DNA of 10,179 nt from Bdellovibrionota bacterium (GTDB taxonomy: Bacteria; Bdellovibrionota_C; UBA2361; JBIKWN01), in contig JBIKWN010000078.1 of NCBI GenBank assembly GCA_044356295.1, positions 1-10,179 on the forward strand, written 5' to 3'. Under the pieces are notes generated by a model. That model did not search any database and was not told where the DNA came from. It saw only the letters and a program-made list of their open reading frames with translations. Of the stretch, positions 1-7,407 are shown one piece after another (positions within the stretch are counted from its first letter, which is position 1; the number at the start of each line of letters is the position of its first letter). The position numbers and the translations under genes are program-made.

Positions 1-1869
1 TCCATTTTTTAAAGATGCAGTGAGTACGACTCTTGAACGATCAGTATTAGTCTTTACTAAAAATCCTAAATCAGTAAAAAGAATAATTCGATTTACATCA
101 GGGAAATAACCGCCATTATGTTCATAATCGCTGGATAATTTTAAAAGGAATAAACCTTGGGGAATATTATTTGCTTTAATATAATTAGAAAAATCGAATG
201 TAGAAAAACGTGGCTTACCTTCTTCTGCAGCGGGTAATGTTACAGTCGAGCTAAATACTTCAGAGATATTTTCTGGACCAAAATTATAGTTAAACTGAGG
301 ATTCGAAAAACTTCCGTAACTTTGACTGACAAGATGGGGAATTGAATGGGGCAACATTCTGAAGAGCTCGAGCTTAACCGAGTCAACATTTCTTCCGTAA
401 AAGGTTAGTTTTTTATCACCTGAGATATTTAAAATAGATCCTTTATGAAGAAAATCAACTGCACCAGGAAATTTAGAAACAGAGTGAAGTGTATTGACTG
501 TCTTCGATAACAAAACACCTGCCGCACTTTTTGCACCGGCATTAAATCGAACATAAACACATCTATCCTTAGGAGCTTCAAAGCTAAAACTTGCATAATC
601 AACGTATGGACGATCCTCTGATATCCTTTTTAATGAAAGTTTTTTTGCTCGCTCAACGAGTACCTGCTCAGATACGAAAGCAGCGGTAGGGGCAATACAG
701 TTTCCTGTATCCTGCCTTGAACTATTCTCTACTGACTGTGTAACCGAACCTTCAGAAGATTCATCAGATGTATCATCACTATTCTCATTATAATCATCAT
801 CAGGGTATGAATCAGGAGCAGTCGTATCAATAATCGGCTCAACCGAATCACTGTCTTCTTGTATCTTCTTAGGTTTATCTAAAAGATAGGCTTCCAGATG
901 CTCGTCAATTTCGGAAGGTGCTACCAAACTAGACGTTGTTATATTAATAACTCGCCCTGCAGAATAATTTTCAGGATTATCAATACTGCGAACTTCAATA
1001 TTCTTAACTTTAAAATAATTTTCAGCACCTGGAACAACAAGAAATTGCGATAGAGACGAGTCGTTCGCATTACCGGGAAACACTGTTGTAACTCCTTTTC
1101 CTATTTCAACCGATAGCTTTCCGTCAGTAGCAGGTATGGATAAAAGGGGCGATCTAATAAATGCTACATTTCCTGTATCGCTATAGGTTACTGTTGGAGA
1201 GAGTTCTTCTTCTTTCCTTTGGCCTAAAGCACCTTCATTAGTAGACAGAGTTAATTTAATTCGTTTCTCAAATGCTGATCGATCGACAAGATGTGATAAC
1301 TGTACTGTTGCAAGCGCAGTTCGTTTGAGTGGATCGGTTGGATCTTCTTCTATCGCAAATGAGGAAACCCCAATCTGTAGCTTTGGTGTTCTCAATTCAA
1401 TCATTTTCTCTTTAAATACTGCATTTTTATCAAGCAGTTGAGGTGAAAGAGTAATTTTATACGGGACATCAACAAGCCAATCTTTTTCGGGCGTTACCAT
1501 AAGTCGATCAGCGGCTGCAACTGTAACACTACCTTGAAATGGCGGTTCAATCTGAATTTTATCAGCAATATTTTTTTCAAAATTCTCAGGTCGAAACACA
1601 GCGCGGGAAAAAGCAATAGTAGCACTTAAGGGTTTAGCATTTGGTTCAAGCGATGTCGCAGGAGCATTAGTAACTGTAATAGCAACATAGTTTGGTTGAG
1701 GAAGATTTATATACCAATAAAATCCATAACCAATGAGAAATGACAGTACTATAAGAATTGGAAGAATTACTTTAAGGAATCGAGGTGTTGTAAAGAACTG
1801 CATCCATGGTGCTGGATCGTAACGAACAGTTCCAAAAACTTTTTTGATGAATAATGTAAGCAATTTCAT
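1..1869 (-). CDS. Bacterial alpha-2-macroglobulin-family (MG-domain) protein, N-terminal 623 codons; continues past the left window edge
   Basis: ATG at 1867-1869 (MKLLTLFIKKVFGTVRYDPAPW...). The segments translated by hand share one frame down to base 1. N-terminal TM anchor VILPILIVLSFLIGYGFYWYI. A2M-like segments include PGAVDFLHKGSILNISGDKKLTFYGRNVDSVKLELFRMLPHSIPHLVSQSYGSFSNPQF and GLFLLKL...RIILFTDLGFLVKTNTDRSRVVLTASLKNG (the TDLG-x-x-VK segment around MG1/MG2). The ORF track omits it, presumably because its stop lies outside the window. Confidence 0.85.
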   Translation of the reverse strand, partial: MKLLTLFIKKVFGTVRYDPAPWMQFFTTPRFLKVILPILIVLSFLIGYGFYWYINLPQPNYVAITVTNAPATSLEPNAKPLSATIAFSRAVFRPENFEKNIADKIQIEPPFQGSVTVAAADRLMVTPEKDWLVDVPYKITLSPQLLDKNAVFKEKMIELRTPKLQIGVSSFAIEEDPTDPLKRTALATVQLSHLVDRSAFEKRIKLTLSTNEGALGQRKEEELSPTVTYSDTGNVAFIRSPLLSIPATDGKLSVEIGKGVTTVFPGNANDSSLSQFLVVPGAENYFKVKNIEVRSIDNPENYSAGRVINITTSSLVAPSEIDEHLEAYLLDKPKKIQEDSDSVEPIIDTTAPDSYPDDDYNENSDDTSDESSEGSVTQSVENSSRQDTGNCIAPTAAFVSEQVLVERAKKLSLKRISEDRPYVDYASFSFEAPKDRCVYVRFNAGAKSAAGVLLSKTVNTLHSVSKFPGAVDFLHKGSILNISGDKKLTFYGRNVDSVKLELFRMLPHSIPHLVSQSYGSFSNPQFNYNFGPENISEVFSSTVTLPAAEEGKPRFSTFDFSNYIKANNIPQGLFLLKLSSDYEHNGGYFPDVNRIILFTDLGFLVKTNTDRSRVVLTASLKNG

Positions 1870-1880
1870 AAGAGGGATAT

Positions 1881-1886
1881 ATAGTA
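1881..1886 (-). promoter_or_regulatory. Putative -10 box (TACTAT) for the alpha-2-macroglobulin gene
   Basis: Minus strand reads TACTAT-ATATCCCTCTT-ATG (11 nt spacing). No SD-like sequence precedes the ATG. Confidence 0.4.
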
Positions 1887-1983
1887 ATTTTGTCAAAAAT
1901 GCACGATTAAAACCCACATCATTTGATGGTCAATTCTATTCGGCTATTTGTTGGACTAAACACAGTGTTAGACAATAAAGAAC

Positions 1984-2050: not shown

Positions 2051-4708
2051 TTAAGAAACTACTTGGTCGTTATTTATTGATAAGAAATACGGAGCTAAAG
2101 CTTCCTCAACATGTTTTTCTGCTACTGGAATGAGTTTATCTTCTAAAGTTTCAATAAATGGAAGGAACTTGGTTTTGTAGTATTCATGTATCTCCATCTC
2201 ACCAATTGGCTCCAGTCCAGATTCAACTAAATGTGGATTTATCCTCTCGACAATAACCCGGTGAAGCATTGGTATATAATCTCTGAAAGCACGAGCAAAA
2301 ACGAATTGCTCTTCTGCTGGCAAATACGAGAGTCCTTCCGATAATTGTGAAAATGTATACAAAAGCCTTCCAGTATAGACAAGCACCTTGAGGCGCCCTG
2401 TTCTATGGTCAAACTCATTACCTTCATGAAGAGCAACATACCTATCCAAAGTAATGATATCGTCATAACGATCTAATATCGCAACTTTCAACAAGTCACT
2501 TGCAAATTCTAAGTTATTATTTTGGTTGATGTCATCTTGTTCAAGAAGATGCTTCATGACGAGACGTTCCTGTTGAGCAACTAAAGTAAATGAAGTTGGT
2601 CCACCTTTAAAAATTCTATTACTTTGAGCTTTGCTGAGATGTTCATACCCTTCTACATCTATTAATTTTTGGAATGCCTCCCCAGAAAAAAGATTGCTGA
2701 GTTGCTCAATAATCAGTTTTAATTCATCAGTTGTTCGAACTTCTGTAAGAATTTTTGAAGCAGCATTGTAGACGTGTCCTCTTTCAGGAAAACTAATTAT
2801 GAACTCACGACTTAGTTCTTGCTGTGTTTCTATGGTACTTGAATAGAAAATCCCTTCACTTAATTTTCCATCTGTTTCCCTTTGAAGCATCGCTTCTTCA
2901 AGACCATCATGGACAACACAAAGCGCAGCCGTTCTGCTAGTAAAGTTCTCTTTAAAATAATGAATTCCTAATCCAAATAAAGTAAATCCAGAATGAACAA
3001 TTGACGCTATCTTTTTATTTAATGAGGGCTCGTAACGTTGTGGTAGTGAAAAAACTGGAATAGATTTATCATTGGTAGATGTAGATTTTAATATTCGAAA
3101 TAACACAAATTTAAAAATGTTTTGGAGCTCAACATTATCTTCTTTCTGATCTCCAAGCAGCCCTGCCCAAAGTTTTTGATGCTCTTGTTGAGGATTGGAC
3201 CTGCCAAATAATCCGCCAATAGTTGAAGCAATTGTATGCTTAGCTGCTCGATGAACTTCATTTATTGGAGGCGTTTTCATTTCAAGACTATGACGGGTCC
3301 TTCGGCGATAAAGGCAATCTGTTATTCCTTGACAGAGTCGGCTTAAGACAGTATCGGCAGCACTAACAATTGCAGTTCGTTTTGCAATAATCAAAGAAGG
3401 ATCTTCAATAACTTTTGGCTGAACCCAAGGAAAATAACCAGGACGAATACTACTTGCATCGTCATTAATCTCAATAATTTGATTTATATTTTTCTGAAAT
3501 GACCTGATTTGATCCTGATTTTCAGAAGACGGTATTGTTTCATTATTCAATGGAATGACAGGTATACCTTCACGCAAACAAGCTCTGATATCAAAAGCAG
3601 TTCCACAGATTACCCGAGCGATATCGGGATCGTTCATTTCTGAATTTATTCCAAAGACTTGATTCACAATAATTGATTCAGGATCACGAGAATAATCTAG
3701 TTTTCCAACTAATTCTTCTAGTTTCACTCGATCGTGTACACGTTTTTGCACTTCATTAAAAAGAGTTCCAAATTCACGCAGTTCTCTACTAGTAAAAAAG
3801 TTTTCTTCAATTTCAGAAACATTCAGAATCATCTCTTCGAGCAAATTAGGTGGGGGGATTTTTTTACTCTCAACTTGCTGCATCAAACTATCGAGAGTCA
3901 ACGTATCAGTTTCGATAAATATTAAACGGTCAGCTTCAGGCGATGCTGCAAGTCCAGTCGTTACGATATCATACCCTTCTCGTGCTAAGAATCCTGCAAC
4001 CCCTCTTACCGTAAATCTAAAAACTTTATTAATGATACTTGTATAAAGATACTGTGACTTTGCCCACTGCCCAAAACCTTTCTGTGTGAGAAATTCTGAA
4101 TCTCTATCAAGAATTTGTTTACCAAGAACAGCAGCTCGAAATGCATCTGTATCTAAAACAAGAACATTAGGAATCATTCGTATATGTGCTGCAGCTTTGG
4201 TTTTTCCTGAAACAGGAAACCCAACAAGACAACTAATGCTTCCTTGTCGAGATGATCCTGGTGTAGATTTTTTTTGTAACCAATCAGAGCGATGGACACA
4301 TTGGTTCATATAAACCAGTTGTTCAACGAGCTCTCCTAGGCTTTGTCCAGTTTTTAACTTCCAGAAAGTGATCGCTTCAATTAATTCTTGGGTATCAACC
4401 GCTGAAATTTCTCTTGCTTCTTTTTGATTATATACTTCAATAGATCCGATTCCACAACATGCACGGAAAAATCTCAGATCTTTTGTTATTGCTTGAATGA
4501 GCTCTTCGGTTGGAATCGAATTCATTCTTCCGTAAAGCGGCAGACCAGTTCCGACATCCTTAAAAGCAGCCAAGATTTCAGGTGTGGAACCTAAATGAAT
4601 TCTATGAAGCAAAGATCCTGGCCTCATAAAGGCATCGTCAATCAACTGACTTACGGCAATAGCTTCTAATCCATTTTCATTGGATATATCAATTGGGACT
4701 TGGTACAT
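2051..4708 (-). CDS. 885-aa hypothetical protein: P-loop nucleotide/polynucleotide kinase-like domain fused to a divergent RelA/SpoT/Mesh1-like HD hydrolase domain
   Basis: Long uninterrupted ORF. Walker A GFPVSGKT (aa 163-170, nt 4199-4222) after a hydrophobic strand, followed by VLVLDTDAFR (DxxR, aa 188-191) and LAREGYDIVTT. The C-terminal half has R558, H572, AALCVVHDGLEE (H600-D601-x-x-E604) and LDRYDDIITL (D746). The CDS is near certain; the domain calls are moderate. Confidence 0.6.
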   Translation of the reverse strand: MYQVPIDISNENGLEAIAVSQLIDDAFMRPGSLLHRIHLGSTPEILAAFKDVGTGLPLYGRMNSIPTEELIQAITKDLRFFRACCGIGSIEVYNQKEAREISAVDTQELIEAITFWKLKTGQSLGELVEQLVYMNQCVHRSDWLQKKSTPGSSRQGSISCLVGFPVSGKTKAAAHIRMIPNVLVLDTDAFRAAVLGKQILDRDSEFLTQKGFGQWAKSQYLYTSIINKVFRFTVRGVAGFLAREGYDIVTTGLAASPEADRLIFIETDTLTLDSLMQQVESKKIPPPNLLEEMILNVSEIEENFFTSRELREFGTLFNEVQKRVHDRVKLEELVGKLDYSRDPESIIVNQVFGINSEMNDPDIARVICGTAFDIRACLREGIPVIPLNNETIPSSENQDQIRSFQKNINQIIEINDDASSIRPGYFPWVQPKVIEDPSLIIAKRTAIVSAADTVLSRLCQGITDCLYRRRTRHSLEMKTPPINEVHRAAKHTIASTIGGLFGRSNPQQEHQKLWAGLLGDQKEDNVELQNIFKFVLFRILKSTSTNDKSIPVFSLPQRYEPSLNKKIASIVHSGFTLFGLGIHYFKENFTSRTAALCVVHDGLEEAMLQRETDGKLSEGIFYSSTIETQQELSREFIISFPERGHVYNAASKILTEVRTTDELKLIIEQLSNLFSGEAFQKLIDVEGYEHLSKAQSNRIFKGGPTSFTLVAQQERLVMKHLLEQDDINQNNNLEFASDLLKVAILDRYDDIITLDRYVALHEGNEFDHRTGRLKVLVYTGRLLYTFSQLSEGLSYLPAEEQFVFARAFRDYIPMLHRVIVERINPHLVESGLEPIGEMEIHEYYKTKFLPFIETLEDKLIPVAEKHVEEALAPYFLSINNDQVVS

Positions 4709-5988: not shown

Positions 5989-7407
5989 TCAATCTGTCAG
6001 ATGAGCTTCGATGCTCTCTATTGATGTTTTTTGCGTATTCAGGGCTCTTGCTGCTTTCAAATATACAAAAGAAGCAAGAAGTGCTGCAACCGCAAAGCTG
6101 ATTTCTGTAAGTATTAGTTTAGTCCCTATCGTCTGAAGATTATCAGGCAATACGGAAATTCCAATCTGCAATGCAGAAGCTGTTGTTACAGGAACTGCAA
6201 GAAGCAATATCGCACGTTGCAGCGCTAAATTAGTTTGAGCTATAGCAAGATTACTGTGTTGTAATCCTACATTCACTTGCTCTACACGCGATGCTTGTTC
6301 CATTTTTTGTATTTGAGTTATGTTTTTTTGACGTTCAGTCATAAACTCGTTAAAACTCATGATAGATTGATTGAGAGTTCGTAAATCACTATCTGCTTCA
6401 ACCACTTGCGAAGTGAATAGATTATAGAGATCTTTCATATTTCTTACTGCAAGACTCTTCCACACAGCGTCTACCGTTGAATCATCTTGCAGAATCCGAA
6501 TTAACCTTCCCATAGTTTGGGCAACGGTTATTTTATGTTCATTGAGTTTACCTACTGCGATACTGAGTTCACCTTGGTGGGTAGAAAAACTGTGTCGTAT
6601 ACTCTGAAGTGTTTCCTCAGATAAATCATCAAAACTAAGACGTGAGTTAAGTTTTTCAAGACGCTCTTCTATTGCACTCGCTGTAGCATCTTGGTTTCTA
6701 AGCACCATTCCATAAAGGGTTCTTAAAACTTTGAGAGGATGCTCAAATTGGGTATCAGAAGATTGACTATCCTCTGATGATTTTTGAGCTCCTATCATTT
6801 TTACAAGCGCACTCCCGACATATTTTTCTTTTGAAAGATCAATGATGACAACGTTATGACCTCGCACTAAAACATAACATTTTTGAAGTGAAATTATATC
6901 TGATTCAACGACCTGATCATTTTGTTCTTGAGGTGGTTTCATTTTCCAATGATGAAATCTGAGGAGCTCACTTTGATCGATTGAACTTTTCTCATTAAGC
7001 TCAAATCGCAACCTTTCATTTCTCATTGACAAGCTTACGATATCAAGCAAATCAGCATCGAATGCTTTTTTACAAACGGGATCTATGAAATTGCTTATTA
7101 TCTTTGCAACAATCTCTTTGTTTGCTCTGCCATTTGGAAGGCTTCCTTCATAATCTTCAAGAAGATCGCTGATACTGGCAGCATTAATATAAGATAAACT
7201 TTTTTGGGGTTGATTTCCTGTTGAATGTTGGTCTTTATCCCACGTTAATTCGATACGTTTATCACTATATCGATATGTAATTCCAGGTTCTATAACACCC
7301 GTATCTTGAATAGGAAATAATTGCCCTAATTCACCTGGTGGTACCAGGGCAGTTGGTGGGCTTAGGGGCACTGAATCTGGGTTGAAAAGACCCATAAGAA
7401 TTGTCAA
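5989..7407 (-). CDS. Divergent CorA/ZntB-superfamily (2-TM) membrane protein lacking the canonical GMN motif
   Basis: 472 aa from TTG 7407 (alternative ATG at 7395). Large soluble N-terminal region, long amphipathic helices (AIEERLEKLNSRL; NMKDLYNLFTSQVVEADSDLRTLNQSIMSF, resembling CorA 'YFRDVYDHL') and two C-terminal hydrophobic helices. The first reads LLLAVPVTTASALQIGISVLPD, resembling CorA 'IFxPLT...YGMNF..MPE'. Confidence 0.6.
   Translation of the reverse strand: MTILMGLFNPDSVPLSPPTALVPPGELGQLFPIQDTGVIEPGITYRYSDKRIELTWDKDQHSTGNQPQKSLSYINAASISDLLEDYEGSLPNGRANKEIVAKIISNFIDPVCKKAFDADLLDIVSLSMRNERLRFELNEKSSIDQSELLRFHHWKMKPPQEQNDQVVESDIISLQKCYVLVRGHNVVIIDLSKEKYVGSALVKMIGAQKSSEDSQSSDTQFEHPLKVLRTLYGMVLRNQDATASAIEERLEKLNSRLSFDDLSEETLQSIRHSFSTHQGELSIAVGKLNEHKITVAQTMGRLIRILQDDSTVDAVWKSLAVRNMKDLYNLFTSQVVEADSDLRTLNQSIMSFNEFMTERQKNITQIQKMEQASRVEQVNVGLQHSNLAIAQTNLALQRAILLLAVPVTTASALQIGISVLPDNLQTIGTKLILTEISFAVAALLASFVYLKAARALNTQKTSIESIEAHLTD

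Follow-up and report, generated by a model that had tools for sequence, protein, structure and literature searches.

The DNA considered here, a stretch of 10,179 nucleotides from a Bdellovibrionota bacterium (assembly GCA_044356295.1, contig JBIKWN010000078.1; hereafter the window), carries at 2051..4708 a gene for an 885-residue protein that was initially annotated, from its letters alone, as a P-loop kinase fused to a hydrolase of the RelA/SpoT-homologue (RSH) type. This raises a simple question: is the fusion real and, if so, why should a phosphate-adding and a phosphate-removing enzyme be housed in one polypeptide? RSH-type hydrolases cleave phosphate or pyrophosphate from the 2' or 3' position of ribose, their substrates including (p)ppGpp, and hydroxyl groups are the acceptors of P-loop kinases whose catalytic aspartate follows strand 2. 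The reading we favour, at a probability of roughly 40%, is that the kinase half writes, and the RSH-like half erases, a ribose phosphate on a nucleotide-type small molecule.

The gene and the integrity of the fusion

The gene lies on the minus strand, which the initial annotation had not specified. Between 2051 and 4708 this strand is a single open reading frame (ORF) of 885 codons followed by a TAA stop (2051-2053), the plus strand being interrupted by many stops over the same interval. The ATG at 4706-4708 agrees with the starts of homologues, which likewise begin with Met-Tyr. All proposed motif positions proved exact: GFPVSGKT at residues 163-170, DTDAFR at 186-191, R558, H572, H600-D601, E604 and D746.

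Motifs of this kind might nonetheless arise by chance in a spurious frame, or be brought together when two genes are joined during assembly. The source is indeed a fragmented metagenome-assembled genome (2.96 Mb in 128 contigs, of which the window is contig C109, and rated 93.6% complete), and a word-index protein search with the 885-residue sequence found nothing. Against such an artefact, the same architecture is common to five full-length homologues from other assemblies, and the domain junction is spanned by a single contig of the likely source run. A second run, from another study, contains the gene in seven pieces, none of them bridging the junction, with 0 differences from our sequence, and both halves of the protein yield high-confidence models. 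We therefore reject an assembly chimera and consider an artefact of either kind extremely improbable; an intact cytoplasmic fusion of two enzymes is the best explanation of the gene product.

The homologues also define the conservation on which much of what follows relies. A HMMER pass with the full-length protein over 1.84 billion representative proteins (E <= 0.001) matched 15: one fragment of the same gene, one N-terminal fragment, four full-length homologues (768-889 residues, 23-34% identity), two proteins of about 400 residues corresponding to the N half (P0014, P0015) and seven corresponding to the C half (P0016-P0022), of which six have 435-494 residues and one is a 238-residue fragment. 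A fifth full-length homologue (773 residues, 29% identical) was found in a genome from another family of the same order (G010). All five keep both domains. In an alignment of the six full-length members, the others being 22-33% identical to the window protein, K169, D186, D188, R191, R558, H572, H600, E604 and D746 are invariant, as are P165, V324, R327, R756, R772 and R781. For the C half we added the seven C-half-only proteins, so that 12 or 13 rows cover each site.

Fold and motifs of the two halves

The N half opens with a helical region (residues 1-150; 4259..4708, minus strand, as are all features of the gene given below) that carries YG.LP and LKTG.S motifs and belongs to no known family, a family search returning a single sub-threshold match to DUF6331 (E 0.006). 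Conservation of the region extends over full-length and N-only homologues and to one further protein, of 801 residues, from a genome of the order (G042; L087:94-2499, plus strand, = G042:C67). There the helical-plus-P-loop module is C-terminal, behind some 480 residues without a known family, and retains the LKTG.S motif, the Walker A and the D.D motif, the equivalent of R191 being isoleucine. This protein suggests that the kinase module has been combined with different partners.

Residues 151-420 (3449..4258) form the P-loop kinase core. An AlphaFold2 model of residues 1-440 (predicted local distance difference test score, pLDDT, 79.5; predicted template-modelling score, pTM, 0.84) shows six helices (13-139) followed by a strand that leads into the Walker A loop, GFPVSGKT (4199..4222), where P165 and K169 are invariant (6/6). 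In DTDAFR (4136..4153), D186, D188 and R191 are likewise invariant in all six members, with D186 and D188 as candidate magnesium-binding or catalytic residues and R191 as candidate substrate arginine, roles that we presume from polynucleotide kinase (PNK) and AAA_33-type kinases. Further downstream, VQKRVHDR (residues 320-327; 3728..3751) lies in a model helix spanning 308-330 and contributes the invariant V324 and R327, the latter a candidate lid arginine; R323 is also kept in the closest pair.

Which kinases does this core resemble most? Foldseek placed uridylate kinase first (1uky, probability 1.00, template-modelling score on the target 0.58). A VIA-align search returned, among its top 50 rows, nearly all P-loop kinases and a few other P-loop NTPases, at Z 9.2-6.8 and with no clear winner: uridylate kinase (Z 9.2), adenylate kinase (8.5), zeta toxin (8.4), PezT (8.1), dephospho-CoA kinase (8.0), APS kinase (7.9, 22% identity) and the Clostridium polynucleotide kinase 4gp6 (7.8, 18% identity). 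The tied top rows thus include kinases of ribose or sugar 3'-hydroxyls, namely zeta/PezT, dephospho-CoA kinase and APS kinase. In an hhalign profile comparison with a set of 12 AAA_33-type proteins from the same order the N half scored a probability of 96.5 (P 9.6e-10 over 105 columns; reversed control P 0.66), with D188 and R191 paired with the D and R of the set's RSD..RK motif, and the match to seven Zeta_toxin-type proteins was weaker (probability 88, P 3e-6). AAA_33 is also the sole Pfam family to recur among members, four of nine matching it at E <= 5 and always below threshold. As modelled, then, the N half is a P-loop kinase, as had been proposed, and lies closest to AAA_33/PNK-type kinases.

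The C half (residues 430-885; 2054..3421) corresponds to a module that also occurs as stand-alone proteins of 435-494 residues. Its AlphaFold2 model, built on a 13-row alignment, has a mean pLDDT of 87.1 and a pTM of 0.91. Foldseek found no match to it at E <= 0.001, weak phosphodiesterase rows being all that it listed. An exhaustive VIA-align search of 48,161 solved chains gave a clearer answer, the ten best chains all being RSH hydrolases: human Mesh1 with NADPH (5vxa; Z 12.6, root-mean-square deviation (rmsd) 2.8 A, 176 of 178 residues, model range 93..391), four small alarmone hydrolases (SAHs; Z 12.3-11.5), SpoT (10.7 and 9.1), a (p)ppApp hydrolase (9.7) and Rel (9.7 and 9.6). All ten act on ribose phosphates or pyrophosphates of free nucleotides. 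Other HD proteins and cyclic-nucleotide phosphodiesterases follow at Z <= 8.9, and we reject a cyclic-nucleotide phosphodiesterase, at Z about 8 and with an rmsd above 5 A, against Z 9-12.6 and 2.6-3.9 A for the RSH chains. The ESM Atlas entry for this exact sequence is a poor single-sequence model (pLDDT 0.40) with meaningless structure neighbours. AlphaFold2 with 9-13 aligned relatives reached pLDDT 80-87, and the RSH fold was found by the exhaustive aligner and missed by Foldseek. A predicted complex of the two halves scored 0.01, which is not evidence either way.

Because helical models may reach a Z of about 13 through a common arrangement alone, a caution that counts against taking these scores at face value, we sought independent evidence in sequence profiles. 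Against a profile of hydrolase domains taken from 13 long Rel/SpoT proteins of related genomes, the C-half family scored 34.9 in hhalign (P 4.9e-4; 31.7 and P 1.4e-3 under another setting), and nine controls (reversed, five column shuffles and cross-domain) scored 11-18, with P between 0.16 and 0.66. In this alignment each of H572, H600, D601, E604, D746, R747 and L754 faces an invariant RSH residue of the same kind. H572 (2993..2995; 12/12 rows), the candidate first metal-binding histidine, thus meets the invariant RSH histidine. The stretch H600-D601-G-L-E604-E605 (HDxxEE; 2894..2911) is the counterpart of RSH HDxxED, with E604-E605 paired with ED; H600 and E604 are kept in 12/12 rows and D601 in 11/12, one homologue having E. 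L654-T655-E656 (2741..2749; L 11/13, T 11/13, E 12/13) provides the LT of RSH VTKLT. Finally, D746-R747-Y-D-D750 (2459..2473; D746 13/13, R747 12/13, D750 12/13) corresponds to DRLHN, which holds the third metal ligand, D750 pairing with its N.

The core that superposes on nearly all of Mesh1 and on four SAH structures comprises residues 522-820 (2249..3145), with some 120 residues of insertions, and its motif order, H ... HDxxE ... LT ... DRxx(D/N), maps to that of RSH enzymes. The C half differs from SAH and Mesh1 in its size (about 450 residues versus about 180, owing to the insertions and to N- and C-terminal helical extensions), in having HDxxEE (or EV) rather than HDxxED, D750 rather than N and no clear RxSGEPY arginine, in lacking an HD_4 match and in being fused behind a kinase. 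The best explanation of the modelled fold and aligned motifs is a very divergent, insertion-bearing HD phosphohydrolase of the RSH (Mesh1/SAH) type, which bears out the hydrolase fold proposed at the outset, and we hold the fold assignments of both halves with considerable confidence.

Writing and erasing, or healing: two possible functions

How might the two halves work? In the mechanism that we favour, the helical region would be followed by a hydroxyl-phosphorylating kinase of the AAA_33/PNK class that uses ATP bound by the Walker A lysine K169, with D186 and D188 serving as magnesium ligand and general base and R191 and the lid residue R327 holding acceptor and phosphates. The acceptor would be a ribose hydroxyl, at the 3' (or 2') position, on a small molecule of nucleotide type resembling NAD, CoA or an alarmone. 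The C half would bind a divalent metal through H572, H600, D601 and D746, activate water through E604 and remove the phosphate that the kinase half had written, so that the protein would control how much of the phosphorylated species is present, in the manner of PFK-2/FBPase-2 or Rel/SpoT. The ORF, its conservation, the folds and the motif correspondences are observed; catalytic competence, the class of substrate and the use of one substrate by both halves are what we infer from them.

Each half of the proposed chemistry has been described elsewhere. MESH1 is reported to remove the 2'-phosphate of NADPH, the compound named in the PDB title of 5vxa, and the ribose 3'-phosphate of CoA (PMC13221220). 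On the writing side, AvrRxo1, a zeta-like P-loop kinase, is described as making 3'-NADP by phosphorylating the adenosine 3'-hydroxyl (PMC5087710). Taken together, these reports make a write-and-erase cycle chemically coherent. In addition, all 14 family members examined are acidic (isoelectric point (pI) 4.6-6.0, net charge -7 to -34), which fits small-molecule better than nucleic-acid substrates.

The proposed logic has parallels in two familiar bifunctional enzymes. In PFK-2/FBPase-2 an N-terminal P-loop kinase is likewise followed by a C-terminal phosphatase that acts on the kinase's product. The likeness in sequence amounts to weak P-loop-level matches (E 0.55-0.99) with no detectable homology beyond the P-loop; the phosphatase there has the histidine-phosphatase rather than the HD fold, and the substrate is a sugar. 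Long Rel/SpoT proteins similarly place an RSH-type hydrolase (Z 9.1-10.7 to our model) beside an ATP-using phosphotransfer domain with potentially opposing activity, but their HD domain is N-terminal and its partner is a pyrophosphokinase of the nucleotidyltransferase fold, whereas that of the 885-residue protein is C-terminal and joined to a P-loop kinase.

A number of observations weigh against the write-and-erase reading. On the kinase side, the Pfam AAA_33 gathering score (27 bits) is missed by the window protein (12.7 bits, E 0.16) and by the best member (20.4 bits), and T251, a position held by T, N or S in the family, is aligned with the Walker B acid that closes strand 3 in the AAA_33 set; the invariant D186 may, we presume, replace this acid, as in kinases with a D.D motif. 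On the hydrolase side, the HHalign probability of the match to RSH domains is a modest 17-32%, and Pfam HD_4 (PF13328) does not match the 885-residue protein even at E <= 1. The second residue of the RSH ED pair is E605 in 9 of 12 rows, V in two homologues (P0007, P0011) and never D. R558 (3035..3037), 14 residues before H572, had been matched to the arginine of the RSH motif order; unlike the rest of the proposed motif set, which aligns with RSH, it is not placed on that residue. The RSH-invariant arginine (R.SGEPY) pairs with L563, and R558, five residues upstream, pairs with an RSH histidine; R558 is kept in 6/6 full-length members and in 8/12 rows overall. Judging from the alignment, it might correspond to the RSH substrate arginine after an insertion. 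The loci in the window and in G010 have no neighbours in common, so that context gives no support. Finally, the best kinase profile match is to a family that contains polynucleotide kinases, and most known kinase-phosphoesterase fusions are nucleic-acid end-healing enzymes.

Some of these departures could also mean that one or both halves are not catalytic at all, the P-loop merely sensing a nucleotide and the C half binding a ligand as a pseudo-hydrolase, so that the protein acts as a regulator or scaffold. Extreme divergence from curated families, the altered ED pair and missing RSH arginine, T251 in place of the AAA_33 aspartate, and the loss of the R191 equivalent in the related G042 module would all suit such a role. 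If it were correct, however, we would not expect what is in fact seen, namely that all mappable metal-binding and phosphoryl-transfer residues are invariant at 22-33% identity, as in active enzymes. Conservation of the catalytic residues of both halves over such distances argues for active enzymes, and we regard a non-catalytic protein as quite improbable.

The main rival to the write-and-erase reading takes both halves to be active but has them cooperate rather than oppose. Here the protein would be a functional analogue of T4 Pnkp and of the HD-Pnk of Runella slithyformis: the P-loop half would phosphorylate 5'-hydroxyl ends of RNA or DNA, and the RSH-like half would remove a 3'-phosphate, 2',3'-cyclic phosphate or 3'-pyrophosphate, both acting on broken or modified RNA such as tRNA 3' ends. 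The initial annotation had overlooked that fusions of a kinase with an HD phosphoesterase are already known among end-healing enzymes. HD-Pnk, as described (PMC6097658), joins a P-loop kinase of the AAA_33/PNK class to an HD-superfamily phosphoesterase in one polypeptide, and it is this precedent that opens the possibility of cooperation here. The kinase core is, moreover, nearest to AAA_33 in profile space, with D188 and R191 on the D..R motif, and the Clostridium polynucleotide kinase is tied with the other top structural matches. There is a precedent on the hydrolase side too: SAH enzymes and MESH1 strip a 3'-pyrophosphate from tRNA CCA ends, an activity that the authors compare to the 3'-phosphatase of T4 Pnk (bioRxiv 10.1101/2021.04.30.441581).

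Other evidence is harder to reconcile with end healing. The nearest structures to the C half are hydrolases of free nucleotides, and the family is uniformly acidic. The domain order is the reverse of that in HD-Pnk, which, compared by description only, has its HD domain first, its kinase last and its gene beside a ligase (PMC6097658); the 885-residue protein has an RSH-like HD domain, no adjoining ligase and an extra 150-residue helical region before the kinase. No ligase or Hen1 gene was found in the window or in the 18 kb around the G010 homologue, and no Tpt1 gene adjoins the gene in either place. RNA ligases do occur in the two carriers, but they are unlinked to the gene and differ between the genomes, and we reject a link to them: the source genome (G000) has a single RNA_ligase-family gene, surrounded by HNH and intein genes on a different contig, and the RtcB gene, detected in G010 alone, follows ftsEX and a gene for an M23 peptidase. 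We consequently view end healing as doubtful, if the most serious competitor.

The ligase region of the source genome is itself of some note. The gene encodes 224 residues (L133:5100-5774, minus strand, = G000:C55), and no RNA_ligase-family gene was found in the other four genomes checked. Its neighbour (L133:5956-10962, minus strand) is an ORF of more than 1,668 residues with intein and LAGLIDADG homing-endonuclease domains, and with an HNH endonuclease gene nearby the region looks mobile or phage-derived.

Imagine, alternatively, that the kinase is toxic: like zeta or AvrRxo1, it might act as a poison through phosphorylation of a nucleotide sugar or cofactor that the cell cannot do without. 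The fused SAH-like hydrolase would neutralise what it makes in cis, until separation, inhibition or delivery of the halves ended that protection. Zeta toxin and PezT do stand among the tied top structural matches (180-186 residues aligned), sharing the kinase fold with helices ahead of the P-loop (aligned from model residue 114), and the Zeta_toxin-type profile is matched at a probability of 88. We also take the acidic D.D motif after strand 2 to be common to zeta/PezT toxins and the 885-residue protein. SAH enzymes are reported to act as antitoxins in toxSAS modules. Family members are few and scattered (3 of the 91 genomes searched in the order), and each half is also found alone. In G010, furthermore, the homologue (L103:9062-11383, minus strand, = G010:C14) lies 48 bp downstream, on the same strand, of a gene for a 294-residue eukaryote-like Ser/Thr protein kinase (L103:11432-12316, minus strand; Pkinase E 5.6e-50), a neighbour that the window lacks.

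Several results speak against a toxin with a built-in antidote, or an effector. PADLOC matched no defence model. In the window the neighbours are housekeeping genes, none of them related to mobile elements or secretion, and an epsilon-like antitoxin gene is absent. Reading the protein by eye revealed no obvious signal sequence at the N terminus, no predictor having been run, and the family was not found in a collection of viral contigs. The protein has no Zeta_toxin Pfam match, its gene not being among the PF06414 matches listed for the source genome, and its match to the zeta profile is weaker than that to AAA_33. Nor do the carriers have a small alarmone synthetase gene beyond the long Rel/SpoT, and we thus reject an antidote to a genomic small alarmone synthetase. 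A toxin-like role is in our estimation unlikely.

Returning to the write-and-erase reading, could the protein simply stand in for a missing metabolic enzyme? The source genome has a canonical CoaE and a canonical NAD kinase, and both enzymes are also present in G010, so that replacement of a missing dephospho-CoA kinase or NAD kinase is rejected. The source genome also has one ordinary long Rel/SpoT, of 740 residues, which lies on another contig (C72) and is its only match to PF13328. That these functions are covered, together with the patchy distribution, points to an accessory function rather than the replacement of a housekeeping one. As a separate observation, G010 has a second HD_4 match (G010:C5:16510-16992, plus strand; E 3.4e-9) in a 399-residue frame that may be SAH-like; the source genome has none.

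A rare family and its significance

The family is very rare and known so far only from metagenomes. Relatives of the protein were found in 2 of 41 related genomes searched and in 3 of 91 genomes of the order, the third being G042 with the helical-plus-P-loop module only, and, phylum-wide, the C-half profile hit 2 of 110 genomes. The genus has two other genomes, 62% and 86% complete, and both were negative. A collection of genome contigs, scanned with the protein and with the stand-alone C-half alignment, contained none, word-index protein searches added no new relatives, and a metagenome scan recovered one locus, with the same gene order as G010. In every case the source name of a family member is "hypothetical protein" or absent. 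As had been surmised, no named family accounts for the whole: Pfam, NCBIfam and PDB sequence searches gave no significant match to the 885-residue protein, and PDB sequence and profile searches matched the N half at the level of the P-loop only, and neither the C half nor the whole protein at all.

The gene itself sits 75 bp from the upstream gene, for a pyridoxal-phosphate (PLP) enzyme of Cys/Met metabolism, and 133 bp from the downstream gene, in a window whose G+C content is 34-42% and whose ordinary neighbours also include isocitrate dehydrogenase and YchF. Among species genomes, this YchF is matched best by a metagenome-assembled genome labelled 'uncultured delta proteobacterium' (69%), followed by several from different phyla at 56-57%, with a Bdellovibrionota bacterium (57%) in their number. 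Scans of the locus for promoter and terminator consensus sequences did not rise above shuffles. DNA of the gene is present in public lake-water metagenome runs, among which no RNA run is listed. There is no indication that this uncultured bacterium is a pathogen.

Two other frames in the window are less ordinary. Between the PLP enzyme and isocitrate dehydrogenase genes lies a 472-residue ORF (5989-7407, minus strand) without a family match, showing faint matches to DUF7946 and to the PADLOC Drt4 model (E 0.004) and, by eye, a coiled-coil-like middle and a hydrophobic C-terminal stretch. Positions 1-1917 (minus strand) encode the N-terminal 639 residues of a large protein whose frame continues beyond the window, with a hydrophobic N-terminal segment, an acidic stretch rich in D, E and S and a sub-threshold match to the MG2 domain of bacterial alpha-2-macroglobulin (E 0.006).

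What, then, is new? Both folds have been known before, as have kinase-phosphoesterase fusions as a type; the novelty lies in which domains are paired, in their order and in an RSH-like module that Pfam does not see. Full-text literature, outside supplements and subscription journals, yielded no paper with a small alarmone hydrolase and a P-loop, polynucleotide or zeta kinase in one protein. Work on RSH hydrolases has treated them as erasers of (p)ppGpp, with (p)ppApp, NADPH, CoA and pyrophosphorylated tRNA added in recent years. To our knowledge, the known writers of these substrates are always either a RelA/SpoT-type pyrophosphokinase or an unlinked enzyme.

An RSH-like eraser hard-wired to a P-loop kinase points instead to a substrate made by simple phosphorylation, and the arrangement itself suggests a route to finding it, since one half should produce the molecule that the other destroys, or the two should heal both ends of one RNA. 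A bolder proposal, which we put forward as speculation with the odds against it, is that the family both writes and erases a nucleotide species as yet unrecognised in bacteria, namely a ribose-3'-phosphorylated cofactor or signal, for example a molecule of the 3'-NADP type or a regulated switch between CoA and dephospho-CoA. If so, the stand-alone C-half proteins would be the founders of a new branch of RSH hydrolases invisible to Pfam, paired with a kinase instead of a pyrophosphokinase. With a family so small and confined to metagenomes so far, the importance of these proteins would lie in enzymology and in the reach of the superfamily rather than in ecology or medicine: in the C half, the RSH hydrolase fold appears to extend into sequence space unseen by Pfam HD_4.

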